A stretch of DNA of 50,913 nt from Nitrospiraceae bacterium (GCA_035607135.1 DATNCR010000348.1:1-50913); one strand, 5' to 3'. Counted from the first letter of the stretch, positions 14,115 to 34,027 are shown. Notes: generated by a model from the sequence alone, not told the origin. Made by a program: numbers and translations.

Positions 14115-16055
14115 TCATGATCTCCACGCTGCCACTTCCGGCATTGAACCATACGAATCAGCGCCCGGATCCTCGCCATCGAGAAACACCCGGTGCCACA
14201 ACTCCAAATTCATGAGCAACCACAATCGATCGGTATGGACACGATGGCCGCTTCGGTGCTCCTCCACCAGCCGCTCGATGGCGACCTGATTAAAGAGGCC
14301 TCGGGCAAGGGCACGCGGTCCAAGTATGAGATCCTTCACCGTCGGCCAATAGGGGCCCTGTAGCCACCGGCCCAACGGAACTGGAAACCCCATCTTGGGT
14401 CTCTTCAATATCTCCTGCGGAATGAGATGGCGAACTGCGTTCCGCAAGACCGCTTTGGTTTCCCACCCATGCAGGCGGAATTGACCAGGCATCGCTCCGA
14501 CCATGTCGACCAGTTCATGGTCCAGGTAAGGTACGCGGCTCTCGATTGAGGCCGCCATGCTCATCTGATCTTGTTTCATGAGCAACTCCACTAGATGCGT
14601 TTGCAAATCCACATAACTCATGCGTTCGAGGAAACCCTCCCGATGTTCATCCCAGTATCGAAGTCCATGGGCGTGGGGATCGCGGGACGTGAGGGCCCCT
14701 CTCTCCTTGATCACCTCTCGTCGCAACGCTGCGGGAAATACGGAAAAATTATCGAAAAATACTCCTCGCGGACCGGGCGGATAGGCCAGAAACGAGCGCT
14801 CGGCATAGCGGCGGATTCCCCTCGGAAGAACTCCCAGCATCCGCGCCACCCCACCACGTATGGTTTCCGGGGTCGCGGCCCAATACAGACGACCCAACCG
14901 CTCGTTCAGTTCCGTGACACGATAGCGATAGTCGTAGCCGAGAAAGAGTTCGTCGGCTCCTTCACCAGTAAGGACGACTTTGACATGCTGCTGCGCCAGT
15001 CTTGACACAAAGTAAAGCGGCACGCTGGAGTTGAAGGCGATCGGTTCATCTTCGTGCCAGACCAGGCGAGGGAGCGCCTGAAAGAATTGCTGTGGCGAGA
15101 CGAGGACCTCATGATACTCCGCTCCCACCGATCGGGCGGCAAGCTGCGCATAGGGCAATTCATTGGCTTCGGTTTCAGAAAATCCAACTGAGAAGGCATG
15201 TACAGGACTCTGCGAAGCCGATGTCATCAATGCGGCAAGCGCCGTGGAGTCCAATCCACCTGAAAGGAACAGCCCTACGGGGACATCACTCATCAGATGG
15301 CTGCTCACCGCAGATTCCAGTTTGGCACGGACTTCACAGCCTCGCTCTTCGATGTCGGCGGAGGAGCGATCGTTCCGCACAGGGGGACACCAATACCGCC
15401 GCTCGCGAAAGCCTTCGGTGGTGGACCAGGATAGTGTATGGCCGGGAAGCAGCTTGCGCACACGCCGAAAGAACGTTTCTTCGCCTGCGACGAATCGGGA
15501 GGCTAAAAACTCGGGCAGAATCTCTTCGTTGAATTCCGGCCGAAACGCTTCCGCAGCCAGGATCCCCTTAATCTCCGAAGCGAATAGCAGCTCATGGTCC
15601 GTACAGGCATAATAGAGCGGCTTGATGCCCAGGCGATCGCGCGCCAGCAGCAGCCGGCTTTGCCCACGGTCCCAGAGTGCAAATGCAAACATCCCATGCA
15701 ACCGTTCGACGCACCGGTCTCCCTCTTCCTCGTATAGGTGCAAAATTGTTTCAGTATCACTACGAGTCTGGTAGCGATGTCCTTTCGCTTCCAGTTTCGG
15801 ACGCAGCTCTGAGTGATTATAAATTTCTCCGTTGAACACGATCCAGACCGACTCGTCCTCATTGGCCATGGGCTGATGTCCCCCCTTGACGTCCACGATC
15901 GCCAAACGGCGATGCGCGAATCCAACCGGCCCATCTGACCAAAGACCGGCCCCATCGGGGCCACGATGACGCTGCACATCGCGCATGCGGATCAGGCGGT
16001 TCTCCTCGACCCGATCACGCATAGAGAAATTCACGATGCCTGCAATTCCACACAT
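14115..16055 (-). CDS. asnB: Asparagine synthase (glutamine-hydrolysing) family amidotransferase, EPS-locus type
   Basis: N-terminal MCGIAGI is the Ntn catalytic Cys. LSGGLDSTALAAL is a PP-loop. The ORF is 646 aa. Confidence 0.9.
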   Translation of the reverse strand: MCGIAGIVNFSMRDRVEENRLIRMRDVQRHRGPDGAGLWSDGPVGFAHRRLAIVDVKGGHQPMANEDESVWIVFNGEIYNHSELRPKLEAKGHRYQTRSDTETILHLYEEEGDRCVERLHGMFAFALWDRGQSRLLLARDRLGIKPLYYACTDHELLFASEIKGILAAEAFRPEFNEEILPEFLASRFVAGEETFFRRVRKLLPGHTLSWSTTEGFRERRYWCPPVRNDRSSADIEERGCEVRAKLESAVSSHLMSDVPVGLFLSGGLDSTALAALMTSASQSPVHAFSVGFSETEANELPYAQLAARSVGAEYHEVLVSPQQFFQALPRLVWHEDEPIAFNSSVPLYFVSRLAQQHVKVVLTGEGADELFLGYDYRYRVTELNERLGRLYWAATPETIRGGVARMLGVLPRGIRRYAERSFLAYPPGPRGVFFDNFSVFPAALRREVIKERGALTSRDPHAHGLRYWDEHREGFLERMSYVDLQTHLVELLMKQDQMSMAASIESRVPYLDHELVDMVGAMPGQFRLHGWETKAVLRNAVRHLIPQEILKRPKMGFPVPLGRWLQGPYWPTVKDLILGPRALARGLFNQVAIERLVEEHRSGHRVHTDRLWLLMNLELWHRVFLDGEDPGADSYGSMPEVAAWRS

Positions 16056-16065
16056 ACTGTGAATC

Positions 16066-16096
16066 CTCCTGCACGACGATCGTCTGGTCTCCGATC
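16066..16096. repeat. Two exact 10-bp direct repeats ACGATCGTCT spaced 21 bp apart, just upstream of the asnB-like start
   Basis: The copies are at 16066-16075 and 16087-16096, read directly from the sequence. They contain the palindromic core CGATCG. Confidence 0.6.
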
Positions 16097-16253
16097 ACGA
16101 TCGTCTCGTCTCGGTCATGATGCAGCATGAATCCGGGATGACGGAGCTTCGATCAGGCACCGGATACAGCAAAGTTACGATTCGAAGCGGGAAAGGGGCG
16201 GAAACCGAATAGCGCACCACGGGAACGCCAATCGGTGCACAAAGCCAGCTAGG

Positions 16254-18185
16254 TTAGACCCTCTGCGGTACGCTGCGGCGAGTGGTCGATGCAGGCCTAA
16301 AGGATTGCGTTGGTCTAGCACGGACAGAACCATCCAAGAATGTCCGGCACCACAATTCGAAGGAAATGAGCGTCCACACCTGGAAATCTAGGGGACGTCC
16401 TTGCTCGTGATTTCGGACCAATGCTTCAATTGCGTGCCTATCGAAAATTCCGCGCCGTCGACAGGTTTCCGACAGAATGGTGTCTCGTACGAGCGGACCC
16501 AGCTGCTTGCGCAGCCACGATCCGATTGGAGGTGCAAATCCTTGCTTAGGGCGATCCAATATAGGATCGGGAAGTAAGCCTCTCAGGGCCTGTACGAAGA
16601 TATGTTTGGTCCGTCCGTTCTTCAGTTTCATCCCGACAGGAATCCTTGCGGCAAATTCCACGAAGGTGTGATCGAGCAAGGGTACTCGGGCTTCCAGACT
16701 ATGCGCCATACTCATGCGATCCACCTTGGTCAGGATGTCAAGGGGAAGATAGTGGTCCAGATCCATTGATTGAAGTTCAGACAGCCAGTGTCCAGTTCCA
16801 TTCTTCTTCAAACGCTCAATCCTCGATTGCTCCGTGGAGCAATTCACCAGATGGGCCATGGCTTCTCTCGTCATCACACGATACCGGTCGCTTCGCTTAA
16901 AGAGGGTGACGGCATCGAGATAGCGCTCCGGACCAGGTAAAGAAAAATGATGCAACCAGTTCTTTCCCCTCATGCCGACCGGCATCGCACTGGAAAGGCA
17001 TCCCAGCGTATCTCTTGCGACGGCGGGTAGAAACCTGGCCCAGCGTTCCCGGCTCTCGACGACATACTCGGTGTATCCGGCAAATAGTTCGTCACCACCG
17101 TCCCCAGACAGCACCACCTTGACGTGTTGCGCCGCCATCTTTGAGACCATATACGTGGGGATCGCAGAGGAATCTCCGAACGGCTCGTCAAGATCCCAGG
17201 CGAGATCGGTCAGCACTTCCATCACATCCGGCTCCAGGATTAATTCGTGATGATCGGTGCCCAATCGATCTGCCACCATCCGTGCAAAGGGGAGTTCGTT
17301 AAAACCTTCGTCGCGGAACCCGATGGAAAATGTTTTGACGCAGCCGGTTCCAACTGCCGACATCGCTGCGACTACAGCGCTCGAATCCGTGCCGCCACTG
17401 AGAAACGCTCCCACCGGCACATCACTCACCATATGCAACTTGACAGATTCCAGAAGATGCGCCCGTAACTCCTCGGCCACATCCTCTTCGGACCGGCCGA
17501 TCTGTGGCTCGAACCTTACGTTCCAATAGCGCTCGATCTTCGGTTCGCTCCCGAGTGAGAGAGAGAGCCGATGTCCCGGTTCCAGTTTCTTTACGCCCTC
17601 GACAATGCTGTCCTGCTCCGGGGTTGTCTTGTACGCCAGCAAATGGTCGAGCGCACTCCAGTTGAGTGTCCGGTCTACATCGGGGATCTGCAAGATCGCT
17701 TTCAGCTCCGATCCGAAGAGCAGGCGACCCTGGACTATGGCGTAATACAAGGGTTTGATGCCCAATCTGTCCCGTACAAGCAGCAGACGTCTCCGACGGA
17801 CATCCCAGAGGGCGAACGCAAACATCCCCCGTAAGCGCTCCACGCAATGGTCTCCCAGCTCTTCGTACAAATGGACGATCACTTCCGTGTCCGTCACAGT
17901 GGAGAACTCATGGCCACGCTTGATCAGCTCGCTGCGAAGGTCCCGGTAATTATATATTTCTCCGTTCAAGACTACCCAGACGCTGCGATCTTCGTTGCAT
18001 ACCGGTTGGTGCCCCGTGTGCAAATCGATGATGCTTAACCGCCGCATTGCCAGACCGATCTCTTGCGTGAGATAGATCCCTTCATCATCGGGACCCCGCG
18101 CGATCATCGCGGCACACATCGCACGCAACTCTTCTTCCATCACCGGAGGTCCAGTCACGCTCATAATTCCGGCTATGCCGCACAT
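16254..18185 (-). CDS. asnB: Asparagine synthase (glutamine-hydrolysing) family amidotransferase, second paralog
   Basis: MCGIAGI N-terminus, LSGGTDSSAVVAAM PP-loop, 643 aa. It is clearly divergent from the 14115-16055 copy. Confidence 0.9.
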   Translation of the reverse strand: MCGIAGIMSVTGPPVMEEELRAMCAAMIARGPDDEGIYLTQEIGLAMRRLSIIDLHTGHQPVCNEDRSVWVVLNGEIYNYRDLRSELIKRGHEFSTVTDTEVIVHLYEELGDHCVERLRGMFAFALWDVRRRRLLLVRDRLGIKPLYYAIVQGRLLFGSELKAILQIPDVDRTLNWSALDHLLAYKTTPEQDSIVEGVKKLEPGHRLSLSLGSEPKIERYWNVRFEPQIGRSEEDVAEELRAHLLESVKLHMVSDVPVGAFLSGGTDSSAVVAAMSAVGTGCVKTFSIGFRDEGFNELPFARMVADRLGTDHHELILEPDVMEVLTDLAWDLDEPFGDSSAIPTYMVSKMAAQHVKVVLSGDGGDELFAGYTEYVVESRERWARFLPAVARDTLGCLSSAMPVGMRGKNWLHHFSLPGPERYLDAVTLFKRSDRYRVMTREAMAHLVNCSTEQSRIERLKKNGTGHWLSELQSMDLDHYLPLDILTKVDRMSMAHSLEARVPLLDHTFVEFAARIPVGMKLKNGRTKHIFVQALRGLLPDPILDRPKQGFAPPIGSWLRKQLGPLVRDTILSETCRRRGIFDRHAIEALVRNHEQGRPLDFQVWTLISFELWCRTFLDGSVRARPTQSFRPASTTRRSVPQRV

Positions 18186-18360
18186 AGGTTATGGTTCCTT
18201 ATAGAGTGAGTGAAGTCGATTCGGATTGGCACACCGGGAATATGGGAAGTCAGAAGATCAACATGACTGGCGTTCTCACCTGTATAACCCAGCGCCTCAG
18301 GGATCTGATGGCAAGCATGCGGCACGGACAGATGCGAATACGGTCAGACTCACGTGTCTG

Positions 18361-19599
18361 CTATTCGTCATGAACTTTCAGTCCAACCCGTATCCCACCT
18401 TTTATGAGTAGGCGATAGATACCCCTACTTTGAATCCTAGGAAGCAGCCTAAATTTGAAGCGATGCAAGAATCGGCTGCTCGCACGGTTTGGAAAGACGA
18501 ATAGCCAGAAGTGGGGCCGCACATGTTCCGTCCAGCTCATCTTCCAACGCTCGACCGCTCCAAGAAAATCAACCTCGTCGTATTTCAGGCTCCACGCATC
18601 CTCCAGTAAGCGCCAGCACAGCATATGGGATGGCGCGCTGTTCGAGAAGTGCGGATCATAGCCCGATTTCAACACATAGAGCTTGTTATGAAAGAGCAGA
18701 GTAATTTGCACGGAGATTCGTTCGCCCTTCACCGTCAAAAAGTAGAGACGTAACCATCCTTGTCGAGCCGCCAGCAGCATGAGTCTTCGATAAAAGGCCT
18801 CTCGGCCGGCGTGACAGAGAATGGCTGTTCCGGCCTTCTGTTTCCAGGCCGCTCCTTCCAGCCTCAATGCATCGTCTATTGCCTGAGACAAATTCTCTTC
18901 TCCTTGAACGATTTCATGACTCACCGTACCGAGTCGGCTCAAGCCCTTCAGCCTCCCTTTTAAATTTGATAGGTGCTTGCGCGAAAGACCTTTCTCATAT
19001 TCGGCCCATGAGCGAACAATGGGTATGTAGGGACTGTTGTTCGATGCCCAGGTACCGACCAGGAACTTGTCGTCGATGGCCAACAGAGGGAGCATCTCCA
19101 GTGCCTGAGCGCCAGGAATTAATTGCCGTAGTTCAAACACATCCCACTCCTTTGAATGGGAGGCTAAAAATTTCCAGATCGCACGGCAGGCCTCCTCCGG
19201 GCGACGCGTCAGGATGAAATCGAACCGCTCAGTGTAGACATTGGCAATCCCCCGAAGGCGCCGCACCGGGCATCCATACATCCGGCCACGATCCAGCATC
19301 AGGGGAGCGAGCGCTATCGTCTTGGTCCCTTCCGTGACAAGGATGATAAACAGGCTTCCTTCCGGTTTAAAACAATCCCACCAGCTGCAGATCCATTCAT
19401 GACGGATGAAGGGGTGATCAATTCCCGCTTCTTCGACAAGCCGATTCCAAACCGACTCCAATCCGACGAAGGCCTCATAGTCTCGAAGCAGTTCAACCTG
19501 CAAGTCCACAGCCGGTATTTCCACGGTGGACGCCATTTTGAATTCCTCCGGATGTTCCGGTTCCAACGGTTGGACCTGAACCATCGACCCTGTTTTCAT
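18361..19599 (-). CDS. CelD/FemAB-like GNAT acyltransferase (Acetyltransf_6-type), paralog 1
   Basis: By my eye roughly half of its residues match the 20923-22131 product (LESVWNRLVEEAGI..PF.RHEW, PVRRLRGI.NVYTERFDFIL, GWLR.YFLT..G.RI.V...LLF.N..Y.LKSGYDP). GAGGA lies 7 nt before the ATG at 19599. A GTG at 19701 that overlaps the upstream stop is an alternative start. Confidence 0.7.
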   Translation of the reverse strand: MKTGSMVQVQPLEPEHPEEFKMASTVEIPAVDLQVELLRDYEAFVGLESVWNRLVEEAGIDHPFIRHEWICSWWDCFKPEGSLFIILVTEGTKTIALAPLMLDRGRMYGCPVRRLRGIANVYTERFDFILTRRPEEACRAIWKFLASHSKEWDVFELRQLIPGAQALEMLPLLAIDDKFLVGTWASNNSPYIPIVRSWAEYEKGLSRKHLSNLKGRLKGLSRLGTVSHEIVQGEENLSQAIDDALRLEGAAWKQKAGTAILCHAGREAFYRRLMLLAARQGWLRLYFLTVKGERISVQITLLFHNKLYVLKSGYDPHFSNSAPSHMLCWRLLEDAWSLKYDEVDFLGAVERWKMSWTEHVRPHFWLFVFPNRASSRFLHRFKFRLLPRIQSRGIYRLLIKGGIRVGLKVHDE

Positions 19600-19697
19600 G
19601 GCTCGTTCCTCTGTCCCACTCCGGACTACGCCCGGAGGCCCCGACATGACGCGACCCTGATCAAACACTTCGAGATATACAAAGGCGGATACATGGA

Positions 19698-20930
19698 TCA
19701 CGCAATCCGGGATTCAGCATGAACGGCCTCTGAAAACGGCAAGACGATATCAAGCTCTCTCACCTGCCGCGCCATATAATCGATGTGTGGCCATGTGATG
19801 TCCTGATGGATTGGCAGTTCCAAGACATGCCGGCGAAGATAACGAGCGTCAGGGCCTTCATGTCCCGCCACAGAGGGGTCGCCCTCATTCCATAGTTCCG
19901 TCGCCATCACGCCCCGCTGCGCCAAGCTCCGGGATGCCTGCGTCTTATTCGCGACCAGGAGCGGAAAAAACAATGGACAGACCCCCGGCGGCAAATCTGC
20001 ACGTACGGCGGCGTGATGAGGCAATTGCTCTTGTAGCCTGAGAAAGTTTTCCCGTCGACGACGATGAATGGTCTTGTAATCCAGCCCAGTGAACAAGCGT
20101 CTCGACCAGGATGCCATGCCGATGCCGACATGCGACGGATTGAAGCCGGTATCGCCGACAGGCACTCGTTCGACATGCAATCTATTCAGCAGGCGGCCGA
20201 TACCCTGTTTCACATCCACCAGTCGACGCCCTGTTACAGGATAACGACTGCGGAATCGCTCGATCCCAAGTTCGGCGAGACGTCCGGCGACAAACATCTT
20301 CCCGCCCCGTCGCAGCGGCAATCTGGTTATTCCCTTGAACACGTTTTGATTCTGGACCAACACGCCGCCGTCCGGGAGCGGGAGCGTTTTATAGAGGCAA
20401 AACACTGCGTAATCGCCGAATGTCCCGACCGGTTGGCCGCCGAGGTCCGTCAGCATGGCCAACGCGCAATCTTCGACCAGCACCAGGCCGGATTCCATGC
20501 AGAGGATGCGAAGCTGCTCCATCGGTTGGGGCCAACCGGCATAATGGATGACGAAGAAGACCTGCGCGTTGTGCTCCCGAATGAGATGGCGTAACGTTTT
20601 CCGGTTCATTTCAAAATCATGTGCGACCGGGTACCATATGATCTGTGCGCCGGCAGCACGGATGGCCCGTACCTCGTTGCCCATATGGTAATCGGGCACC
20701 AACACGACCCGACGGCCACTCCGCACGAGCTCTCTGAACAGGTAATAGATCGCGCTCCGGGCGGTATGGAAAAATGTCGTATCGGCCGCGTTCAAGGGAA
20801 AGGGCAGATCCTGCTTGTCATGGGCATATAATTCGTGCAAACCGAGGCCCTGCCATGCGGGAAGATACATTGCCTGTTCCTCCGCTCTACGAACCGAATG
20901 CCGGGACAGGACGTCTAAGAGACTAATCAT
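19698..20930 (-). CDS. DegT/DnrJ/EryC1-like PLP-dependent enzyme (sugar aminotransferase-like, divergent)
   Basis: FHTARSAIYYLF...VLVPDYHMGNEV...VIHYAGWPQPMEQL...AVFCLYKTLPLPDGGVLV has the fold-type I layout, with a candidate PLP lysine in YKTLP. Confidence 0.65.
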   Translation of the reverse strand: MISLLDVLSRHSVRRAEEQAMYLPAWQGLGLHELYAHDKQDLPFPLNAADTTFFHTARSAIYYLFRELVRSGRRVVLVPDYHMGNEVRAIRAAGAQIIWYPVAHDFEMNRKTLRHLIREHNAQVFFVIHYAGWPQPMEQLRILCMESGLVLVEDCALAMLTDLGGQPVGTFGDYAVFCLYKTLPLPDGGVLVQNQNVFKGITRLPLRRGGKMFVAGRLAELGIERFRSRYPVTGRRLVDVKQGIGRLLNRLHVERVPVGDTGFNPSHVGIGMASWSRRLFTGLDYKTIHRRRRENFLRLQEQLPHHAAVRADLPPGVCPLFFPLLVANKTQASRSLAQRGVMATELWNEGDPSVAGHEGPDARYLRRHVLELPIHQDITWPHIDYMARQVRELDIVLPFSEAVHAESRIA

Positions 20931-22131
20931 GCTGTACCGTCACATCCATATGCGTGGCGACGCGCCGTAACGGCGCGTAGATGCGGCTTTCTCTAATGCG
21001 TGGGATGAGGCTGGCCTTGAGATAGTGCAACAATCGAGACTTGGGACGCTTCGGAAACGCGAACAACCAGAAGTGTCGGCGCCGATCCCTGGCCCAATTT
21101 AATTTCCATCGCTCTGTATTGCCGAGGAAATCGATTTCGTCAAACTTGAGACTCCAGGCTTCCTCGAGAATTTTGTGACAGAGCAGATGCCCCGGAGAAT
21201 AGGCCGCATACTCGGGATCGTATCCCGATTTGAGCATATAGATTCTGTTCCGGAAAAGTAGTGCAATACGGACGGCAATTCGCTTGCCACCCAACGTCAA
21301 AAAATAGATCCTGAGCCACCCCTGCTGGCCTGCGGTTTGGAGAATTTGCCGATAAAAAGCCCGGCTATCCGACCGACTTCGGATCGCAGTGCCGCCCTCA
21401 TCTTTCCAGGCCACGGCTTCTAGGTTCAAGGCCTCCTCGAGATCCGCATCGAGCCGGGCGTTCGAGACAACGACATCCAAACCCAGTGGCGCCGACGTCT
21501 CCAAATGATGCTGGGATTTTCGAATGTTGGCACGATGGCCTTTTTTGAGACTGCTGAAGTAGGTCTCCCATGGTTGCCGGACCGGAATATAAGGGGATTC
21601 CGTTGAAAGCCATTCCGTCAGGAGCAATCGACGCTCGATTTCCAGTCTCGGCAGATACCCGATCACTTCACTATCTTCCGGCAACTGCCGGAGTTCGAGC
21701 ACATCCCATTCGGAAGCATGATCAGCCAAATAGGTCCAGATGGCGATGCAGCAATCAGCGGGGCGGACGGAGAGAATAAAATCGAACCGCTCCGTGTATA
21801 CATTCGTGATTCCCCGCAAGCGCCGAACGGGAATCCCATACATCTTGACTCGATCCCGCATAAGGGGAGCGATCGCGATCGGATGCCCGCCCTCACACAC
21901 GATGACAATGTTGAACGTTCCACCATGGTCGAAACACTCCCACATCGCGCGGATCCATTCATGCCGTACGAATGGAAACGCTATGCCTGCTTCCTCCACC
22001 AGACGATTCCATGTCGACTCAAGCTCGATGAAGGCTCCGTAATCCGTGACCACTTCGACAGACAGAGCGCGAGCCGGCGGTTGCAACACGTCCGGGAGTT
22101 CCGCGACTAAGGCAACAGAATTATGCCGCAC
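20923..22131 (-). CDS. CelD/FemAB-like GNAT acyltransferase (Acetyltransf_6-type), paralog 2
   Basis: See paralog 1 for the shared motifs. The only in-frame starts are GTG or TTG (22131, 22089, 22086). The 22131 start overlaps the upstream gene by 11 nt. Confidence 0.7.
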   Translation of the reverse strand: MRHNSVALVAELPDVLQPPARALSVEVVTDYGAFIELESTWNRLVEEAGIAFPFVRHEWIRAMWECFDHGGTFNIVIVCEGGHPIAIAPLMRDRVKMYGIPVRRLRGITNVYTERFDFILSVRPADCCIAIWTYLADHASEWDVLELRQLPEDSEVIGYLPRLEIERRLLLTEWLSTESPYIPVRQPWETYFSSLKKGHRANIRKSQHHLETSAPLGLDVVVSNARLDADLEEALNLEAVAWKDEGGTAIRSRSDSRAFYRQILQTAGQQGWLRIYFLTLGGKRIAVRIALLFRNRIYMLKSGYDPEYAAYSPGHLLCHKILEEAWSLKFDEIDFLGNTERWKLNWARDRRRHFWLFAFPKRPKSRLLHYLKASLIPRIRESRIYAPLRRVATHMDVTVQHD

Positions 22132-23236
22132 GATGAATGCCTTCCATACGTCGCATGTGATTCCCTGCCATTATGTCGTTGTACAATGTCGACCATTGGC
22201 TACCCACCCGGCTCCATGAATATCGGTCCAGTTGCGCGTAGGCCTGGGACGCCATCGACCGCGCGCGATCAGGATATTCCAGCAAACGCGTGGCAGCGGC
22301 AGCCATCGCAGCAGAGTCTCTCTCCGGCACGATCGTACCGGTGACACCGTCTTCAAGCATATTGACGATATCCCCGACACCGGTGCTGACAACGGGCAGA
22401 CCGGACGCGATCGCTTCAAGAATGGACAGTGGTTGATTGTCGATGAGTGAGGAATTCAGAAAGATATCCGCGCCGTCATGGACCGACGGCATGTCCGCGG
22501 GGTCGACGGCCCCTAGGAATCGAATCCCTTCGATCCCTAGCGATCGGCACAATCGTTTCAATTCTGTTTCCTGGCTCCCGGCGCCGACGATTGAAAGCGT
22601 GGCCTCGGGGTACCTCGTCTTAAGAAGCGCGTAGGCTCGAATCGTGTGATCCACTCCATAGTACCATTCGAAGTTTCGTATGGAGAGGAACTTAGGACGT
22701 AGCGGCTTCCGCACGCGATACTGAAACCGCTCGATATCGATCGTATTATGGATGACGCGGGCTCGGTATCCGTAAGTGGCAAATACGCGCCGTAGGTACT
22801 CGGACGGAACCACGATTTCGTCGACGAGCTTCAGCCACGGATGGATGAGCCGACCCCAATGAGCGAGATGATCTTCCGCCTCGCCGCTATGGTAATTAAG
22901 CACCACGGGTTTGCCGAACAGTCGACCTGATAGAAGGGCCGGGAGCGGCGCGAGGAGAAACGACCAGTACGAGGCCGAGGAGGCTTGCACGATGTCGGAA
23001 CGGCGGAGCCGGATCAGACCGGGAAGATACAGGCACTGATTGACGAGAGTTCGAATGTAGGGCACTCGCCTCACCCATCTGAACCGGCGAGAAAATTCCG
23101 GATCAATGGGAATGAACTGCACCTCGTACCCTTCCCCTTTGAGTTGTTCGGTCAGCATCGACGCATGCAACGCTTGACCACCGAATGTTCTCGCACTGGG
23201 GGCAATGAGTGCGATCTTGGGTCGAGCAAGCATCAC
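22121..23236 (-). CDS. Family-4 (GT-B) glycosyltransferase
   Basis: IALIAPSARTFGGQALHA...GADIFLNSSLIDNQPLSILEAIASGLPVVSTGVGD matches the E-x7-E region. It has an ATGA overlap with the flippase stop. Confidence 0.85.
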   Translation of the reverse strand: MMLARPKIALIAPSARTFGGQALHASMLTEQLKGEGYEVQFIPIDPEFSRRFRWVRRVPYIRTLVNQCLYLPGLIRLRRSDIVQASSASYWSFLLAPLPALLSGRLFGKPVVLNYHSGEAEDHLAHWGRLIHPWLKLVDEIVVPSEYLRRVFATYGYRARVIHNTIDIERFQYRVRKPLRPKFLSIRNFEWYYGVDHTIRAYALLKTRYPEATLSIVGAGSQETELKRLCRSLGIEGIRFLGAVDPADMPSVHDGADIFLNSSLIDNQPLSILEAIASGLPVVSTGVGDIVNMLEDGVTGTIVPERDSAAMAAAATRLLEYPDRARSMASQAYAQLDRYSWSRVGSQWSTLYNDIMAGNHMRRMEGIHRAA

Positions 23237-24705
23237 GGGCTAGTCCTCGGTATCGACGAGAAACGTCGGGACATCCAATCCAGTAAGACATCCCATTCGC
23301 TTTTTCGAATCAAACCCACGGTCCATGCCAACAGAAGATAACCACCCCCATAGATCAGGCTGATTACAGCGAGGCGGATCACCAAGGAAGTCGGCCCCTG
23401 GGACGCCATCCACACAGCCGGCAAGGACGCCGCGAGCGCTGCCGCTCCGATGCCCCCGAGGTCGCGCCAGGGAAGAAGACGTCCGACCCCCACATGCCAG
23501 CAGGACATCATTTTCGCGAGCCCCATCGCTTTGCCGACCGCTAAGGCCAGTATGGTGACCAGCACGGCGCCGACCAACCCCATGCCGCTCAAGAACCAAT
23601 ACATGCTACCGGCCACGACGGCCACCCGCACAATGTTGATCACGAGGAGAAATCTCATCTGCGCATAGACGCGAAGCAAGCCGTCTATCGGAATCGCCGC
23701 GAACAGAATCGCAAACGACCACGCCATAAAGACCGGAACACTGGCCGCATAGGCCTCGGTGAAAAGAAAGACGATCAGATCGTGCGCCACGACGAGTAAC
23801 AGCGCCACCAGAGGGAAAAACACGAGGGCCAATTTCCTCACTGTATCGTGCCACATGACGATGATCGTGGATTCTCGCCCATCGCGGATGGCCTGCACCA
23901 TGCCGACCATCATGACATTGACGACCGATGTGCTGACGACTTCCACCAGCGGAACCTGAAGGCATCCGACCGAATAGACCGCGAACGTGGCCGCATCGAA
24001 TACAGAAGACACGACATATTGGTGCAATGTTTCCTGTCCCGTTAGAAACAGCACATACACCGCGAATGGTAAACTGTAGGCAGCCTGCCGCATCAGCAAG
24101 GTCCAGTTGGGTCGCAGCGCATCTCCGAATTCCCTGATGCAATACCAGAGGGTCGTTCCAAGACGGATCGCCGCGAACACGATCGCGCCGTACAGCATAC
24201 TGGCCAAGGTATGAAACACGAGCACCGGAGTGAGGATCAGCAACGCACGACTGGTATCGGACAGGCCGTAGGATGCGGCGGCTGTGCCGTAGTGATGACG
24301 GGCCGTCATCACGACTTCTAGCACATAGGACGCGAGCATCAAGAGGAAAAATACTGCCAGCAGCGGCATGAGGGCAGCCAGTGACGGGTTATTCATCCAT
24401 CCGGCAACGACATCTGCCCCCACAAAGAGCAACCCTCCGCAGAGTAGGCCTATGAGCCCCAGTACCACAATCGAATTACAGACGTACTTGCCCCCGTCTT
24501 CCCCCGCGCCGGGCAGAAAATAAAACAAGTTTTCAGACATCCCCACCTGTGCGAGACTTAAGATGGTCCCGTAGAGTAAGAACACCTGCTTATATGTCCC
24601 AAATTCCTCTTGGCCGAATATGCGTACAAGAATAAGAGGCAAGAGGAATAAGACGACATAGCCAATCGTCCGCCCAGCCATAATGGTCACTGCGGGTTTA
24701 AACAT
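23233..24705 (-). CDS. Wzx-type oligosaccharide flippase (MOP superfamily polysaccharide biosynthesis protein)
   Basis: About 12-14 predicted TM helices that begin right after MFKPAVTIMAGRTIGYVVLFLLPLILVRIFGQEEFG. The start at 24705 overlaps the upstream stop (ATGTTTAA). The 50-aa Arg-rich extension of the ORF-track model is unlikely to be real. Confidence 0.8.
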   Translation of the reverse strand: MFKPAVTIMAGRTIGYVVLFLLPLILVRIFGQEEFGTYKQVFLLYGTILSLAQVGMSENLFYFLPGAGEDGGKYVCNSIVVLGLIGLLCGGLLFVGADVVAGWMNNPSLAALMPLLAVFFLLMLASYVLEVVMTARHHYGTAAASYGLSDTSRALLILTPVLVFHTLASMLYGAIVFAAIRLGTTLWYCIREFGDALRPNWTLLMRQAAYSLPFAVYVLFLTGQETLHQYVVSSVFDAATFAVYSVGCLQVPLVEVVSTSVVNVMMVGMVQAIRDGRESTIIVMWHDTVRKLALVFFPLVALLLVVAHDLIVFLFTEAYAASVPVFMAWSFAILFAAIPIDGLLRVYAQMRFLLVINIVRVAVVAGSMYWFLSGMGLVGAVLVTILALAVGKAMGLAKMMSCWHVGVGRLLPWRDLGGIGAAALAASLPAVWMASQGPTSLVIRLAVISLIYGGGYLLLAWTVGLIRKSEWDVLLDWMSRRFSSIPRTSP

Positions 24706-25882
24706 CGTGGCTATCTCCGTGGCGTTCCGATTGTCGTGGTGGCGGGTTCGAGATATCCTCTCCGATGGCTCGATCATCCTTCGGCGTCGAGGCCGCAGCC
24801 CTTCCATTATGATCATGCGCGCAGGGAGACCAGAGGTCATACAGACGGTTCGCATGGCAACTCATGAGGGCCGCTGAAAACTGTCCGGCTCCATCTACAC
24901 ATGACCGCTCCCACAACAATGTACGGGGAATTGTCAGGCCGGGATGCCTCCGGTCGCGGCGGAGACAGGTTCCGTAGCCGAAGCGATATCCCGCCTTGGC
25001 AACCGCCGACACCACAGCAGCGTTGAAACGTCCATCCGGATATGCAAAATGTGCGATGGGTCGATTCAGCTTGTCGCGGAGCGTGAACCTCGATTCCACT
25101 GTCTGGGAGGTCACCTGGTCGTCGCTTTCTTCCGTGAGGAGCGCATGCGTTTGCGTATGTGATCCGATGGTCATACCGGAATCGGCGATGGTCCGTACCA
25201 TCTCCCAGTCCAAGGTCTGCATCTCCGGATAGTCACCGGGATCGATTCGACATACGGTTTCCAGTGCCTCGATCACACGCCGCAAGGTCTTCTGGGGAAG
25301 GGTGGTGAACAGCCACCGCATCGTGCGGAAGGCATCGTCGAGCCGTCCGCCGCCATTATAGGCGCCGATATGGATATCATTCGCACCGAGAAAACGTTGA
25401 AATCTCTCCTCGGAATGGCCGAAGAGGGGAAGAACTTTCTCAAGAAGGAGATACGTTTTGTCATAGATCTGAAGTTCAGGACTGCCTGTGGCCTCGGTGA
25501 CGATGAACATCCCTGCCGGTATGCCTTTTTGCTTCAACAACGGCAGGGCTAGGTGATAGACCCCGGCATAGCCATCGTCGAAGGTCACTGCCGCCGAAGG
25601 CTGCCCGAACGGATCGCCATGCTCCAACCGGGCACCGAGTTCGTCCAAGTTGATGAAGCGGTATCGGCGCCCGATCCAGTCCAACTGACTCTCCAACATA
25701 TTCAGGCTGATCAAATTCGGATTTTTCGCGAGCCCGGGCCGAGCGTGAACGTCTTCCACGACCCCGTGATAGGCGAGAACAAGCGGCAAGGCCTTGGTCC
25801 CCGTCCAGGACGCGACGGCACGATCAGTGCCCGTCCAGCCCAGCGCAGCGGCAACCCCGTTCTTCATAAGAGTTTTCAACAT
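24698..25882 (-). CDS. Polysaccharide deacetylase (NodB homology domain)
   Basis: AVTFDDGYAGVY is the TFDDG motif 1, followed by GSHTQTH and FAYPDG motifs. Confidence 0.85.
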   Translation of the reverse strand: MLKTLMKNGVAAALGWTGTDRAVASWTGTKALPLVLAYHGVVEDVHARPGLAKNPNLISLNMLESQLDWIGRRYRFINLDELGARLEHGDPFGQPSAAVTFDDGYAGVYHLALPLLKQKGIPAGMFIVTEATGSPELQIYDKTYLLLEKVLPLFGHSEERFQRFLGANDIHIGAYNGGGRLDDAFRTMRWLFTTLPQKTLRRVIEALETVCRIDPGDYPEMQTLDWEMVRTIADSGMTIGSHTQTHALLTEESDDQVTSQTVESRFTLRDKLNRPIAHFAYPDGRFNAAVVSAVAKAGYRFGYGTCLRRDRRHPGLTIPRTLLWERSCVDGAGQFSAALMSCHANRLYDLWSPCAHDHNGRAAASTPKDDRAIGEDISNPPPRQSERHGDSHDV

Positions 25883-25979
25883 GCGGACGAGGGGAACTGG
25901 TGATCGGTGATGAAATCGAACAAGAAGAGTTCTGGGTCGCTAGGCGCTCAATCGCTGAGACGAACTAATGAGGTCTCCG

Positions 25980-27638
25980 CTAATGGCCGCCATCGGCGAC
26001 GTATGCGCCGCGTTTCCAGGCAATAGCTCGGTCCAACATGGCTTGGGGAAGCAGCCGGCGGGCGGCTGATTTGGCTCGACCATCGAGTGCCACTGCCGCT
26101 CGGCACAGAATGCCTCCGATGGAAGGCGGAAACATCTGTATCCGGACCAACTCGCGCGATTCGCTGGCCCAGAGCGCCTTGTATGTCTCTGTTCCATGCA
26201 GCAGGTCGTAGTCTTCAACTCCTTCCGTCACCGCGTGCTTGATTGCCAACCCCATGGTGACCAAACCCACGCTCTGCTGCCGATAGGCGGGATCGAATCC
26301 GGACTGATAGAAGTAAAAGCGGCGACGGTAGAGAAATCCATAGAGTGCTCCGATGGGACGGCCGTCCAGCCTGAGGATGAACAGGCGGAGCCAGCCTCGT
26401 TCAAGGGCAGTACGGCTGAACGCGTCGTGAAAGGCTTGCATGGTCGGCGAGCGCAATGTCTCGGAACCTCCCCGTTGATCCCAGCGCAAATTGTGAAGGT
26501 CGAGCAGATTCCGCAGAGCCTCCGGCCGTTGCTCCTCGTGCTCCACCACGCCGAACGTCAAGGTACCGAGTTTATGAAGGTTCTTCAGGCGCCGGTTGAA
26601 ATTGTACCGATGCTGCGATCCCAAACCGGAGAGGTACGATTCCCACGTATGTCCCTTTAACGGAATATGAGGAGACACATCGATAATACGGCGCTGCGCG
26701 ATCCATCCAGCTTGCTCGAGTTCCTGCACCAATCCGGCAGCGAGCGCGTCCTTTGCGTTGAGATGGCTGAAGGTCATCATCGACCGGCGTCCGTTAAAAT
26801 ATTCCGTCAGACTCCGGCTCACTTGTTGCTCATGTCCACGCCGGATGACGATGTCCAAATAATCAGAGCCAACCAGGCCGCTCCCGAGGAATTGCAGCGA
26901 TCGGGACGGCAGGAAGCCTCCGAACCGGTTGCGCTCGCTGAACAGAGGCGCCAGTCCGAGTAGCCGGCTATGGCGCCGTACGGTCGTGATCGCTAGCGTT
27001 CGTTCGGTGGAAAAATGCCGCCACCAAGTCTCGAGCCACTCTCGCGTGAGAAACAGGCAATCGGCATCGCTGTCGTTCAACAGCTCGGCCCATTCTTCCG
27101 CCAAATGCGGGAGCTGGCTTGGATCCTTGATGCTGGTCACCAAGAGGTTATCCGTCGACCGATAGGACAGCGCATCCGCCTCCTCAGGAGGTTGCAGGCA
27201 ACTGTAATCCGCAATATCGATGTCTGTTCGAACCACCTTCGCCGGAATCCCTGCGACAACCGTTCGAGGAGGGACATCCTCCAGCACAACGGCATTCGCC
27301 CCGATCACCGATTCGGTACCGATGGAAATGGGCCCGAGCAGCTTCGCGCCTGCTCCGATGACACAGCGGTCTTCGATCACCGGCACGCCCCACCGACGAG
27401 ACCGCCCGCCGACTGTCACTTGATGGCCGAACGTGACAAACTTTCCGATTTTACAGCGTTCGTGCAGTACCACTCCTATGCCTCCATAGGCGAACTCCGT
27501 TCCCTCGCCGATCTCCGTGGACATCGGAATGACCGCGTTGTACAGCACGCAGATGGCCTGGTACATCAACCTGGGAACCACCGGAATACGACGGCGATAA
27601 CACCAATGACCGACTCGATAGAAGGAAAGCGCGTTCAT
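25980..27638 (-). CDS. Fusion protein: N-terminal hexapeptide (LbH) serine-acetyltransferase-like O-acetyltransferase plus C-terminal CelD/FemAB-like GNAT domain
   Basis: Residues 1 to about 140 (YRVGHWCYRRRIPVVPRLMY...IGEGTEFAYGGIGVVLHERCKIGKFVTFGHQVTVGG...VIGAGAKLLGPISIGTESVIGANAVV) look like a CysE/EpsC-type LbH domain. Residues from about 170 to 552 (FLTREWLETWW...GWLRLFILRLDGRPIGALYGFLYRRRFYFYQSGFDP) look like an Acetyltransf_6 domain. Confidence 0.75.
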   Translation of the reverse strand: MNALSFYRVGHWCYRRRIPVVPRLMYQAICVLYNAVIPMSTEIGEGTEFAYGGIGVVLHERCKIGKFVTFGHQVTVGGRSRRWGVPVIEDRCVIGAGAKLLGPISIGTESVIGANAVVLEDVPPRTVVAGIPAKVVRTDIDIADYSCLQPPEEADALSYRSTDNLLVTSIKDPSQLPHLAEEWAELLNDSDADCLFLTREWLETWWRHFSTERTLAITTVRRHSRLLGLAPLFSERNRFGGFLPSRSLQFLGSGLVGSDYLDIVIRRGHEQQVSRSLTEYFNGRRSMMTFSHLNAKDALAAGLVQELEQAGWIAQRRIIDVSPHIPLKGHTWESYLSGLGSQHRYNFNRRLKNLHKLGTLTFGVVEHEEQRPEALRNLLDLHNLRWDQRGGSETLRSPTMQAFHDAFSRTALERGWLRLFILRLDGRPIGALYGFLYRRRFYFYQSGFDPAYRQQSVGLVTMGLAIKHAVTEGVEDYDLLHGTETYKALWASESRELVRIQMFPPSIGGILCRAAVALDGRAKSAARRLLPQAMLDRAIAWKRGAYVADGGH

Positions 27639-28942
27639 GACGATATTGTGTGCCGGCCGGCTTCAGGATTGTGGAGACTGCCTCGCGGAGCCGAACGCCC
27701 CGATCGAGTGCGACTGAGGAGATCATGATAGAGCTGCTCCGTCGTCGCGACAGCCCGATCGAGGGAATAGCGGGAAAATACCAGCTGCCTTCCGGCGTGA
27801 CCCAAGTTCGCAGCCAGCTCTCCGTTCTCCAACAAACGGCAGATCGCGCCGGCCAATGCGTCTGCATCGGCTGGTGGCACCAGTAGTCCGTTCACACCGT
27901 CTTCGACAATTTCAGGGGTCCCGCCGACGCGTGTCGCCACGACCGGGAGGCCAGCCGCCAATGATTCTAGGAGTGAATTTGAAAGTCCTTCTAATCCGAG
28001 CGAGGGATGAACCGAAACCGTCAACGCTGACAACAGCTCCGGCACATCCAGCCGAAAACCAGTGAAGATCACTCGATCTTGCAACCCCAGAGTGATGGCC
28101 AGCTGCTTGAGTTCCTCCCGGTAGCCTTGGTCGATTTTGTTATCACCGACAATGACAAATCGGATTCGCGGGATCCGGGCTGCAACCAGGGCAGCGGCCC
28201 GCAGAAAGTATTCGTGCCCCTTGATTTTCATCAGCCGTGACACAACACCGACGACGGGAGTTCCCGACGGAATGTTCCATTCCTGGCGTACACGCTCGCC
28301 GGTATGGGGAATCCGGAACCGCTCGGTATCGACGCCATTGGGGATCACCGTCAAATAATCCGGACTATAGCCTCGTCGTATCAAATCCTTCTTGATCGCT
28401 TCGGCATTCATCACGATGTGATCGGCCAGTCGGAGACAGACCTTTTGGACTTCATGCTGCCAGGGAGTCCAAATATCGCCGATGTCACGCACCGAGCCGA
28501 TAATCACCGGTACGCCGGCAAAGCGGGCTGCGGGAATTGCAAAGACGTTTGGGTAGAAGCTATATGTATGAAGGATCTGAATGCCCTGCCGGCGCAGGTT
28601 CCGTCCGAACTCCATCTGTTTCCTCAGCGTGGCATATCCATACAAGCGGCGGATTTTGTACTCCGCAATCGACCAGGATTGTGCATGACATTCGGCTAAC
28701 AATTCCCCCACCCGGTGCAAACAGGCGAACTGCAGGTCGAACCGCCGAGGGTCCAACCCCTTGCTGATGTTGACAACCTGCCGCTCCGTCCCTCCGATGG
28801 CAAAGAGCGTGACGAACTTCATCAGTCTAATCCGTTCACAACGGGCGTGAGAAAACGGCTCAGCGGGCAACAAATTTGTCGTAGCCGCGGACTCAGCGGA
28901 TGGCGAAAGCCTGAGAGAGTCCGATGGAATTAATCCTGACAT
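27635..28942 (-). CDS. Family-4 (GT-B) glycosyltransferase
   Basis: MKFVTLFAIGGTERQVV...VGVVSRLMKIKGHEYF...EGLSNSLLESLAAGLPVVATRVGGTPEIV. The ATG at 28942 has GAGGA 4 nt upstream and overlaps the upstream stop by 13 nt. The ATG at 28822 (MKFVTLF) is the alternative, homology-like start. Confidence 0.82.
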   Translation of the reverse strand: MSGLIPSDSLRLSPSAESAATTNLLPAEPFSHARCERIRLMKFVTLFAIGGTERQVVNISKGLDPRRFDLQFACLHRVGELLAECHAQSWSIAEYKIRRLYGYATLRKQMEFGRNLRRQGIQILHTYSFYPNVFAIPAARFAGVPVIIGSVRDIGDIWTPWQHEVQKVCLRLADHIVMNAEAIKKDLIRRGYSPDYLTVIPNGVDTERFRIPHTGERVRQEWNIPSGTPVVGVVSRLMKIKGHEYFLRAAALVAARIPRIRFVIVGDNKIDQGYREELKQLAITLGLQDRVIFTGFRLDVPELLSALTVSVHPSLGLEGLSNSLLESLAAGLPVVATRVGGTPEIVEDGVNGLLVPPADADALAGAICRLLENGELAANLGHAGRQLVFSRYSLDRAVATTEQLYHDLLSRTRSGRSAPRGSLHNPEAGRHTISS

Positions 28943-30288: not shown

Positions 30289-31366
30289 CCAATCGCTCGT
30301 CAGCCGTGACGTCCGCCTGGGGGACCGGCGGCTTTTCAGGACCTGCCTGCCGGCTCTCCTGTCCGAGAATCACGATCTTGATTGTCATGAGGAGGATGCG
30401 AAGGTCCAACCACATCGAGAAATATTTGATGTAGTGCAAGTCGTAGCACATCTTCTCCGTCTCTTCCTCGAGACTATTGGCATATCCGTAACGGACCTGC
30501 GCCCAGCCGGTAATGCCGGGCAGCACCATCGAACGGAATCCGTAGAACGGAATGCGATCCATGAAGAGGTTATAGTTGGACGCCGGATGCGGACGAGGCC
30601 CGACCAGGTTCATGTGACCCAGGAGCACGTTCACGAGCTGTGGCACTTCATCCAGCCGGAACTTCCGCAGCCATCGTCCGACCCGCGTGATGCGATCGCC
30701 ATTGTCTTTCACCCATTCGGAAGTCCGCTCCGCGGCCGGATGCATGGTGCGAAACTTCACGAGGGGAAACCGCCTGCCATTCTTCCCGATCCGTTCCTGT
30801 ACGAATAGCACCGGCCCGGAAGAATCGATTTTGATGAGCAGAGCAATGGCGGCAAGAAGAGGGGCGCACAGCAGAAGTCCGACCGCCGACAAGACCACGC
30901 TCATGACCCGCTGGAGCGCGCAATGAATAGCACGGTGGCGCAATTCATTGGCATAGAGAAGATAACTTGGATACAGCCGATCAAGAGCCAGCTTTCCGGT
31001 AAGCCGCTCGTACACATGCAGTGCCTCCTCAATGACGATGCCCCGTCGCTTGGCTTCAAGAAGGGCCTCGATCGGGACCCGCCCCCTGCGTTCGACTAAC
31101 GCCACCACAATGCGATGGGGCTGCGTGTTTGGTTGTAATTGCAGGTCATCCGGCCCAGGGATCACACTTCCGTTTTTCAGGGCTCGGCACGGATTGCCGA
31201 GTTCCGCGCCTTCCAGCACCCGATAGCGAGGCCGCTTCTTCAGTTCGGCGATCACCGTACGGGCCACTTCGCTTTTGCCTAGAACCAGCACAGTCTCGAC
31301 CATATCTCGTGACCTCAGTATGAGCCAGGACGGCTCGCCAATAGCGCAGCGACTGTCACCGTCCAC
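30278..31366 (-). CDS. Polyprenyl-phosphate glycosyl-1-phosphate transferase (bacterial sugar transferase, priming enzyme); N-terminal region appears truncated or frameshifted
   Basis: The catalytic domain is LLSAVGLLLCAPLLAAIALLIKIDSSGPVLFVQERIG.NGRRF...KFRTM...DEVPQLVNVLLGHMNLVGPRPH...VLPGITGWAQV. Only a Rossmann-like linker (VLVLGKSEVARTVIAEL) lies upstream of it. The usual 4-TM N-terminal block is absent from this frame. Confidence 0.85.
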   Translation of the reverse strand: MDGDSRCAIGEPSWLILRSRDMVETVLVLGKSEVARTVIAELKKRPRYRVLEGAELGNPCRALKNGSVIPGPDDLQLQPNTQPHRIVVALVERRGRVPIEALLEAKRRGIVIEEALHVYERLTGKLALDRLYPSYLLYANELRHRAIHCALQRVMSVVLSAVGLLLCAPLLAAIALLIKIDSSGPVLFVQERIGKNGRRFPLVKFRTMHPAAERTSEWVKDNGDRITRVGRWLRKFRLDEVPQLVNVLLGHMNLVGPRPHPASNYNLFMDRIPFYGFRSMVLPGITGWAQVRYGYANSLEEETEKMCYDLHYIKYFSMWLDLRILLMTIKIVILGQESRQAGPEKPPVPQADVTADERLDAV

Positions 31367-31545: not shown

Positions 31546-31548
31546 GGC

Positions 31549-32370: not shown

Positions 32371-32400
32371 CCTCCTTCACGAGAGGCGAGCGTCTCGTTG

Positions 32401-34002: not shown

Positions 34003-34027
34003 CGTTTCCTCCTCGAACTACGGCGAA

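Follow-up and report, generated by a model that had tools for sequence, protein, structure and literature searches.

The window analysed here is a 50,913-nucleotide stretch of DNA from a Nitrospiraceae bacterium (GCA_035607135.1, DATNCR010000348.1:1-50913), in which a single long minus-strand operon (~38079 to 8725) includes, at positions 14115-27638, a dense group of genes for sugar-modifying enzymes. We propose, with a probability of roughly 0.55, that these genes form a cytoplasmic tailoring cassette in a Wzx/Wzy-dependent exopolysaccharide (EPS) operon and that they follow the logic of the Wbp/Vim pathway, with two enzyme pairs that each provide an amine and then N-acylate it, together with amidation. 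By analogy with that pathway, the cassette would place in the EPS repeat unit an amidated amino sugar, probably of the amino-uronic kind, that carries N-acyl or N-aminoacyl groups. An original prediction, made from the sequence alone, had suggested amide or amino-acyl decoration of the polymer, and we likewise judge this to be the most plausible reading, although the chemistry is one that we infer.

The prediction named two AsnB amidotransferases, three CelD/FemAB-like GNAT domains (PF13480), a DegT-like enzyme, a deacetylase (here assigned to CE4) and a left-handed beta-helix (LbH) domain, and all of these were recovered on the minus strand where it had placed them. The LbH acetyltransferase, which it counted as a gene of its own, instead forms the N-terminus of the protein that also carries the third GNAT (25980-27638). 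It had also described 13 kb of modifying enzymes rather than glycosyltransferases; tailoring enzymes do account for ~10.6 kb of the 13.5 kb, but a GT4 glycosyltransferase and a Wzx-type flippase lie among them.

Enzymes of the tailoring cassette

The three GNAT proteins, designated G1, G2 and G3, all pass the gathering cutoff (22 bits) of PF13480 (Acetyltransf_6; CelD/BcsL/BioF2-like GNAT), with scores of 88.7-130.3 bits. The FemAB family, PF02388 (cutoff 24 bits), gives a score under its cutoff for G2 (16.4 bits, E=0.0043) and does not match G1 or G3; a few homologues (P0208, P0212) carry a precomputed PF02388 match. G1 and G2 are paralogues with 49% identity, whereas G3, in its GNAT part, shares 26% identity with G2, which points to two old GNAT types, A (G1 and G2) and B (G3). 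The protein that contains G3 is a fusion, LbH-G3, in which an LbH domain of the serine-O-acetyltransferase/EpsC type (residues 1-140; 123 bits against NF041874 EpsC) precedes a type-B tandem GNAT (~165-552). The true start of G1 is likely at 19599 (M35).

The AlphaFold2 (AF2) model of G2 (predicted local distance difference test score, pLDDT, 87) is a tandem GNAT, and its comparison with solved structures bears out the FemX-like fold that had been anticipated. In a Foldseek search, the ten nearest neighbors in the PDB were all aminoacyl-tRNA-dependent enzymes, including FemX from S. aureus and W. viridescens and the peptide synthases Sbb17/Sba18; these were followed by FemA and the aminoacyl-phosphatidylglycerol synthase domains of MprF, with CoA-dependent tandem GNATs ranking lower. 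The matches to FemX (6snr, 1ne9) have template modeling (TM) scores of 0.53-0.64 and a probability of 1.00. Sequence searches of all PDB chains with G2 (phmmer) or with a G1/G2 profile returned no meaningful match; only the fold comparison links these GNATs to the Fem enzymes. Many G2 orthologues are longer (~600 aa), with an added C-terminal classical GNAT (PF00583/PF13302) that the JGI annotation calls RimJ/RimL/RimI-like (P0140-P0150, P0153), and in one related locus (L011, 9180-9875) a classical GNAT is present as a separate 231-aa open reading frame (ORF) between G2 and the DegT-like gene. This added domain, which is not found in the window, could N-acetylate the transferred amino acid.

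The gene between G1 and G2 encodes a DegT-like protein with the features of a fold type I pyridoxal phosphate (PLP) enzyme. It likely starts at 20870, giving a protein of 390 aa, and a homologue of that length in public data (P0001) is 100% identical. Its match to PF01041 is partial, covering profile positions 64-192 of 360, in the N-terminal half. The AF2 model (pLDDT 88) has PseC, WecE, ArnB, TlmJ and perosamine synthase as its top Foldseek matches, with TM scores of ~0.6 and 13-20% identity. K181 (ORF numbering) and an EDCA motif are invariant in the family; a profile search against the PDB pairs the former with the PLP lysine, and the latter with the EDxA motif, of TlmJ, 3uwc and WecE. The best NCBIfam equivalog models score ~50 bits against cutoffs of 375-630; by this measure the protein belongs to a remote subfamily and would not count as an orthologue of WbpE, PseC, WecE or ArnB.

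The two AsnB proteins, AsnB1 and AsnB2, are 42% identical to each other. Both begin with MCGIAG, with Cys2 of the N-terminal nucleophile (Ntn) glutaminase intact, and both match the Asn_synthase (PF00733) and GATase (PF13537) domains. The top NCBIfam model for each is TIGR03108, the WbpS/XrtA/PEP-CTERM amidotransferase, with 643 bits for AsnB2 and 555 bits for AsnB1, neither of which reaches the curated cutoff of 816.9 bits. The CE4 deacetylase has kept all of the motifs TFDDG, HTQTH and AYPDG, and matches the XrtA-specific model TIGR03006 at E=0.034 only.

No signal peptide or transmembrane segment was found in any of the tailoring enzymes. Thus, their chemistry is cytoplasmic and takes place before flipping by the Wzx protein, whose start is likely at 24705. 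The GT4 glycosyltransferase (22121-23236) is not a tailoring enzyme, yet by its syntenic position it is a regular member of the cassette.

Table 1. Features of the cassette and associated genes in the window
Feature	Position	Strand	Profile evidence
AsnB1, Gln-dependent AsnB-family amidotransferase, accessory second copy	14115-16055	-	PF00733 332 bits, GATase_7 172 bits
AsnB2, WbpS-like, copy conserved within the cassette	16254-18185	-	PF00733 353 bits
G1, type-A tandem GNAT	18361-19701	-	PF13480 88.7 bits
Divergent DegT-like PLP enzyme, fold type I	19698-20930	-	PF01041 55.5 bits (cutoff 19.8)
G2, type-A tandem GNAT, FemX-like fold	20923-22131	-	PF13480 116.2 bits
GT4 glycosyltransferase	22121-23236	-	Glyco_trans_1_4 and Glycos_transf_1, ~102 bits
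Wzx-type flippase	23233-24855	-	PF13440 and PF01943 matches; 10 transmembrane-like windows
CE4 polysaccharide deacetylase, analogous to VimE/HfsH	24698-25882	-	PF01522 83.3 bits
LbH-G3 fusion	25980-27638	-	Hexapep 46 bits (residues 86-118), PF13480 130.3 bits (residues 342-487)
Assembly/export genes of the same operon	27635..36640	-	Pfam/NCBIfam: GT4, Wzy, polyprenyl-phosphate glycosylphosphotransferase, tyrosine kinase, chain-length determinant, OPX, outer-membrane protein, UpxY-like antiterminator
UDP-GlcNAc 2-epimerase, divergent from the operon	41108..42208	+	PF02350 326 bits

Conservation and fusion of the cassette genes

A profile of the DegT-like protein identified 240 genome loci, of which the best 80 were kept for analysis of synteny; because loci were picked through this protein, the counts that follow are uninformative about cassettes without a DegT-like gene. 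The 80 loci span approximately nine phyla and come from Nitrospirota, Acidobacteriota (Bryobacterales, Vicinamibacterales and Polarisedimenticolia), NC10, Rokubacteria, Binatia, Gammaproteobacteria, Planctomycetota, Acidimicrobiia and Schekmanbacteria. The occurrence of the gene set in 80 loci, together with 100% identical homologues in public data (P0001, P0121), shows that these are real conserved genes and not chance ORFs.

Related loci share a co-directional core in the order GNAT-A, DegT-like, GNAT-B, deacetylase, Wzx, AsnB, GT4; the export and assembly genes known from the window usually come ahead of it. Among the 69 loci in which both flanks of the DegT-like gene are available, a PF13480 gene lies on at least one side of it in 68 and on both sides in 56. 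Where at least 8 kb of downstream sequence is present (n=53 loci), a deacetylase is found in 51, a Wzx flippase in 47 and an AsnB of the AsnB1 or AsnB2 type in 50, mostly of the AsnB2 type on the locus maps. Two gene pairs are especially constant: in 59 of 60 testable loci the deacetylase comes next after a G3-type GNAT, within 400 nt, and in 88 of 96 cases an A-type GNAT is the neighbor of the DegT-like gene. In the lineage of the window the order is rearranged (LbH-G3, deacetylase, Wzx, GT4, G2, DegT-like, G1, AsnB2, AsnB1), with both pairs kept. The LbH domain is fused to G3 in 18 of 78 loci, whereas the pairing of DegT-like gene and GNAT is general; we therefore set aside the idea that LbH O-acetylates a transferred serine for beta-replacement by the PLP enzyme.

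An exhaustive profile search placed 1,476 clusters (50% identity, E<=1e-30) in the DegT-like subfamily. Eleven of the top 150 representatives have at least 650 aa, and all nine of those scanned are fusions of the DegT-like domain with PF13480. They occur in both domain orders, DegT-GNAT (P0242, P0243, P0247, P0264) and GNAT-DegT (P0272, P0302, P0266, P0327, P0348), and in a further protein of 559 aa (P0347) a classical PF00583 GNAT is joined to the DegT-like domain. Such Rosetta-stone fusions strongly support the view that the DegT-like protein and the GNATs are a functional unit.

The original prediction had gone further, in that G1-DegT-G2 looked to it like a dedicated three-gene subunit. 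The flanking GNATs and the fusions uphold a conserved DegT-like/GNAT unit, but the exact triad is not general, as outside Nitrospira the gene 3' of the DegT-like gene is a G3-type GNAT rather than a G1/G2 paralogue. Nor is the triad obligatory, because the cassette of N. moscoviensis (L081; CP011801, 2474314-2495528) has no DegT-like gene. In that locus, two adjacent type-A GNATs, a Methyltransf_21 protein and a 461-aa protein with a metallo-beta-lactamase (MBL) fold are followed by LbH-G3, deacetylase, Wzx, AsnB, GT4 and heparinase II/III-like genes.

Other loci vary around the unit. In a gammaproteobacterial locus (L067, 5955-9971), the place of the upstream GNAT is occupied by a flavin monooxygenase of the LLM class, by an AMP-forming ligase and by a 362-aa protein that has no Pfam matches, and ORFs equal to these in size and position occur in L072. 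A locus from Binatia (L055, 4527-8762) has an AMP-forming ligase between two unscanned ORFs of 379 and 362 aa, upstream of a retained G1-type GNAT. In a Nitrospirae metagenome-assembled genome (MAG; L041, 11368-13970), an ATP-grasp ligase and an FAD oxidoreductase lie beside the DegT-like gene, and in Rokubacteria (L070, 4919-10639) the unit of DegT-like gene and G3-type GNAT is present in tandem duplicate, with the deacetylase between the copies. ORFs of ~460-780 aa, for which the window has no counterpart, lie 3' of the AsnB/GT4 or GNAT genes in L001, L002, L006, L007, L013, L067, L072, L076, L077 and L081; those in L001 and L002, which were scanned, and that in L081 are heparinase II/III-like, and the others are presumed to be so from their size and position. 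Heparinase II/III-like proteins may act as lyases or as uronate C5-epimerases and would in that case hint that the polymer contains uronic acids. In Acidobacteriota versions of the locus (Bryobacterales/Terriglobia), scans of L025, L034 and L035 showed large NHL-repeat/TIG-domain proteins encoded immediately upstream of GT2 and GNAT-A, and ORFs of like size are present in L038, L040, L042, L046 and L048.

Proposed pathway and its relation to known systems

Contrary to the earlier statement that no characterized pathway has this combination of enzymes, Wbp/Vim combines DegT, LbH, CE4, FemAB-like and AsnB proteins (PMC7468200). Type IX secretion system (T9SS) cargo is linked to 2-N-seryl-3-N-acetylglucuronamide in Porphyromonas gingivalis and to 2-N-glycyl-3-N-acetylmannuronic acid in Tannerella forsythia (Veith et al. 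2020, PMC7468200). Deletion of PGN_1234, which encodes the AsnB homologue WbpS, leads to the acid in place of the amide, and an interspecies swap of vimA exchanges Ser and Gly (PMC7468200). The proposed route comprises WbpA, WbpB, WbpE (DegT), WbpD (LbH), VimE (CE4), VimA (FemAB-like, TIGR03019) and WbpS (PMC7468200). The cassette shares with it a DegT aminotransferase class, an LbH acetyltransferase, a CE4 deacetylase, a FemAB-like transferase, an AsnB and an optional 2-epimerase and, presumably, the logic of deacetylating, re-acylating and amidating an amino-uronic sugar. It differs in that its GNATs are three in number and do not match TIGR03019, its DegT-like protein is of a remote subfamily and not a WbpE orthologue, and the window ORFs scanned have no WbpA or WbpB domains; moreover, its genes lie in a Nitrospirota Wzx/Wzy EPS operon, whereas Wbp/Vim belongs to the lipopolysaccharide (LPS) genes of Bacteroidota. 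The cassette thus appears to resemble the Wbp/Vim "linking sugar" pathway while using different enzyme families.

The two conserved pairs can be mapped onto the Wbp/Vim logic. The deacetylase and GNAT-B would correspond to VimE and VimA, by which the 2-amine is exposed and then re-acylated, the DegT-like enzyme and GNAT-A to WbpE and WbpD, by which an amine is installed and then acylated, and AsnB to WbpS; it is from this mapping that we propose a cassette for an N-(amino)acylated, amidated amino sugar. The substrates, acyl donor (aminoacyl-tRNA or acyl-CoA), order of steps and product that we infer are as follows. The CE4 deacetylase would strip the N-acetyl group from an N-acetylhexosamine (HexNAc) or HexNAc-uronic residue, carried either by a nucleotide sugar or by an undecaprenyl-diphosphate-linked repeat unit, and the adjacent type-B FemX-like GNAT (G3) would re-acylate the exposed amine, probably with an amino acid. 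The DegT-like PLP enzyme would put a second amine on a keto-sugar, and the type-A GNATs G1 and G2, a Nitrospira-specific duplication, would acylate this amine or extend the substituent, acting at different positions or consecutively in the manner of FemX, FemA and FemB. The Gln-dependent AsnBs would turn one or two carboxylates into primary amides, at the uronic C-6 carboxylate, as WbpS does, or at an acidic amino-acyl side chain. The LbH domain would contribute an acetyl group, and Wzx would flip the decorated unit last.

Several findings weigh against this proposal, the first of which concern the acyl donor. TIGR03019 (VimA / pepcterm_femAB) matched none of 24 type-A and type-B GNATs from nine lineages at E<=10 in NCBIfam release 20, where its presence was assumed from its sister models TIGR03006 and TIGR03108; we therefore dropped the idea that the GNATs are VimA orthologues. 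The sole NCBIfam match, shared by all 24, is to BspF, a PF13480 effector reported to be an acyl-CoA (crotonyl) transferase, and this was the only relevant report that we found in the PF13480 literature. As BspF is the only characterized sequence relative, the FemX-like GNATs might take acyl-CoA donors (acetyl, crotonyl, hydroxyacyl or malonyl) and produce unusual N-acyl groups rather than amino-acyl ones, with the logic otherwise the same. An AcCoA-binding tandem GNAT of clavulanic acid biosynthesis among the structural neighbors (ranks 12-34) would fit such donors, as would the acyl-activating, AMP-forming ligases beside the DegT-like gene in L067 and L055. We regard acyl-CoA donors as possible, though on the unlikely side, because every one of the ten nearest structural neighbors depends on aminoacyl-tRNA and because VimA sets the attached amino acid in the glycan pathway for which product data exist (PMC7468200). 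Moreover, as judged by reading the sequence, the C-terminal GNAT segment YMLKSGYDPEYAAYSPGHLL appears to lack the canonical Q/RxxGxG/A motif that binds the CoA pyrophosphate.

A second set of adverse findings bears on the DegT-like enzyme, for which other PLP chemistry is possible, given its half-length PF01041 match and its 13-20% identity to solved aminotransferases; in addition, the cultured N. moscoviensis keeps the GNATs without it. In the Wbp/Vim route, WbpA, a UDP-GlcNAc 6-dehydrogenase, and WbpB, a 3-oxidase, supply the keto-uronic substrate. Pfam and NCBIfam scans found no dehydrogenase/oxidase of the WbpA/WbpB type and no 4,6-dehydratase among the scanned window ORFs, and in the related loci a keto-sugar-forming gene does not recur regularly; the 20 unassigned ORFs that were scanned there instead encode heparinase II/III-like proteins, ATP-grasp enzymes, an FAD oxidoreductase, AMP-ligases, an LLM monooxygenase, an M48 peptidase, NHL-repeat proteins, CofD, a formyltransferase and extra Wzy proteins. 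This pattern would suit an enzyme that acts on the substituent installed by the GNATs, through transamination or beta-elimination, or that supplies a non-proteinogenic amine or acid donor, rather than a keto-sugar aminotransferase; the very divergent C-terminal half, beyond the matched positions 64-192, is in keeping with this, and fusion to GNATs in both orders is compatible with consecutive action on one substituent. Nevertheless, we consider a role of this kind improbable. In its fold and in the aligned PLP lysine and EDxA motif, the protein is closest to sugar aminotransferases, pairs of aminotransferase and N-acyltransferase are canonical in sugar pathways (WbpE/WbpD, PglE/PglD, PseC/PseH), and the keto-sugar enzyme could be encoded elsewhere in the genome.

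The trio of deacetylase, FemAB and AsnB is recognized as characteristic of EPS loci of the PEP-CTERM type (PMC3684757; NCBIfam model names), and clusters of vimA-like, deacetylase, asnB and exosortase genes in such loci have already been pointed out by the authors of the Wbp/Vim study (PMC7468200). An EPS cluster of Rubrivivax, Thauera and Rhodoferax encodes a 2-epimerase, a PEP-CTERM-type deacetylase, a FemAB-related protein and three AsnBs, and transposon insertions in the AsnB genes of the Rubrivivax cluster abolish biofilm (PMC3684757). The XrtA/PEP-CTERM loci (Haft 2006, PMC1569441; PMC3684757) and the window have in common a deacetylase, a FemAB-related protein, one to three AsnBs, a GT4 and a UDP-GlcNAc 2-epimerase, as well as a set of polysaccharide co-polymerase (PCP), tyrosine kinase, OPX and outer-membrane proteins; in comparison, the window-type cassette has in addition the DegT-like gene and a second type of GNAT. 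The AsnB, initiating phosphoglycosyl transferase, chain-length, kinase, export and Wzy proteins of the window all have XrtA-system models as their top NCBIfam matches; for the assembly and export genes these score under the curated cutoffs, with the sole exception of TIGR03025, a generic EPS sugar transferase.

A last point against the proposal is that no exosortase and no PEP-CTERM protein was found in the window, either by Pfam/NCBIfam searches of the large ORFs or by a six-frame motif scan, and for this reason we rejected the locus as a PEP-CTERM system. In the literature, we found nothing that links true Nitrospira to exosortases. The same evidence bears on the idea that the cassette makes a rare linking sugar, whose amino-acyl amine would accept proteins through a sortase-like enzyme or cross-link chains, with the bulk polymer undecorated. 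The Wbp/Vim product has such a role in T9SS anchoring to anionic LPS (A-LPS), the same has been proposed for VimA-like genes in exosortase loci (PMC7468200), and the best matches of the export and assembly genes are of the XrtA/PEP-CTERM type. We nonetheless find this doubtful, since those matches, TIGR03025 excepted, lie under their cutoffs and since neither the window nor the extra related-locus ORFs examined hold an exosortase or PEP-CTERM protein.

Two further systems resemble parts of the proposed pathway. In Caulobacter crescentus, the holdfast is shaped by the combined action of HfsH, a deacetylase, and HfsK, which is FemX-like, and a basic C-terminal extension of HfsK is required for its membrane association (PMC5362036). 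The likeness lies in the pairing of a cytoplasmic CE4 deacetylase with an N-acyltransferase of the FemX-like tandem-GNAT type, both acting on an adhesive polysaccharide, and in the strongly basic C-terminal tails of the window GNATs, with net charges of +9 for G1 (last 45 residues), +7 for G2 and +5 for G3. By analogy, these tails are reminiscent of the HfsK extension, although they would be equally suited to RNA binding. The AsnB and DegT-like partners of the cassette have no equivalent in the holdfast system.

The Fem ligases and MprF share the tandem-GNAT fold and, as described above, are the top structural neighbors of the G2 model; the series of consecutive FemX, FemA and FemB paralogues also offers a model for G1 and G2. 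They differ in sequence (10-13% identity, with PF02388 under its cutoff) and in acceptor, which in the cassette would be a polysaccharide precursor instead of lipid II or phosphatidylglycerol. Taken further, this likeness would lead to a "peptido-exopolysaccharide," in which Fem-like ligases, acting successively or in parallel, build amino-acyl or short peptide stems on two sugar amines, one from the CE4 deacetylase and the other from the fused or adjacent DegT-like enzyme; acids would be amidated by AsnB, and free amines would take proteins or cross-link chains. We think it unlikely that the decoration goes this far; if it did, Nitrospira, Acidobacteriota and further environmental phyla of high abundance would have such a polymer in their biofilm matrix.

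The decoration theme of the Wbp/Vim and PEP-CTERM type is already known; what is new here is the use of different GNAT and PLP families, the occurrence in other phyla, the embedded flippase and a window without an exosortase. Among glycan pathways, only Wbp/Vim has a FemAB-like enzyme with a demonstrated role in determining the amino-acyl substituent of a sugar. If our proposal is correct, amino-acylated, amidated amino-uronic sugars would be widespread in environmental EPS, beyond the LPS of Bacteroidota, as the cassette recurs across at least nine phyla and the DegT-like clusters alone number 1,476. In soils and wastewater, Nitrospira and Acidobacteriota are of key importance in the formation of biofilms and flocs. 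The fusions of DegT-like and PF13480 domains are compact biochemical targets, through which the donor question for enzymes of the VimA/HfsK type becomes approachable by experiment.

Operon setting and neighboring genes

The G+C content across the window is 52-59%, and the nearest relatives of its proteins are from Nitrospira and Nitrospiraceae MAGs. As assigned by Pfam and NCBIfam scans, the operon begins with a GINT1_N/GH43-like protein and an UpxY-like antiterminator, followed by an outer-membrane protein, an OPX export protein, a chain-length determinant and a tyrosine kinase, and then by the initiating phosphoglycosyl transferase, Wzy and a GT4, which lead into the cassette. On its 3' side are a TuaH-like GT4, a beta-helix protein, a methyltransferase and a GT2. 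Internal promoter-like and terminator-like sites in the cassette range occur at the frequency expected by chance, and no tRNA genes or Rfam families were found in the window, which fits a single transcription unit. The divergently oriented UDP-GlcNAc 2-epimerase may supply a precursor sugar.

The antiterminator is a NusG-like protein of the UpxY family (35996-36640, minus strand; 96 bits against a cutoff of 100), which is separated from the preceding GINT1_N/GH43-like gene (37162-38079, minus strand) by ~520 nt of non-coding DNA that could be the site of an antiterminator target element.

Outside the operon, two ORFs, of 456 aa (5068-6438, minus strand) and 484 aa (7191-8645, plus strand), have no Pfam or NCBIfam matches, and an 822-aa protein (1365-3833, minus strand) has seven DUF5122 beta-propeller repeats. 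Right-handed beta-helix proteins of ~575 aa are encoded on both sides of the cassette (10908-12650, minus strand, and 38997-40715, plus strand). The latter has chondroitinase-B and NosD-like matches, and homologues of the former, with 48-54% identity, are found downstream of the cassette in Vicinamibacterales loci; both proteins may be polysaccharide lyases or epimerases. Finally, an AlgE-type outer-membrane porin (Alginate_exp, 110 bits) is encoded at 47057-48763 (minus strand), 9 kb upstream of the operon, and hints at a second system for acidic polysaccharides.

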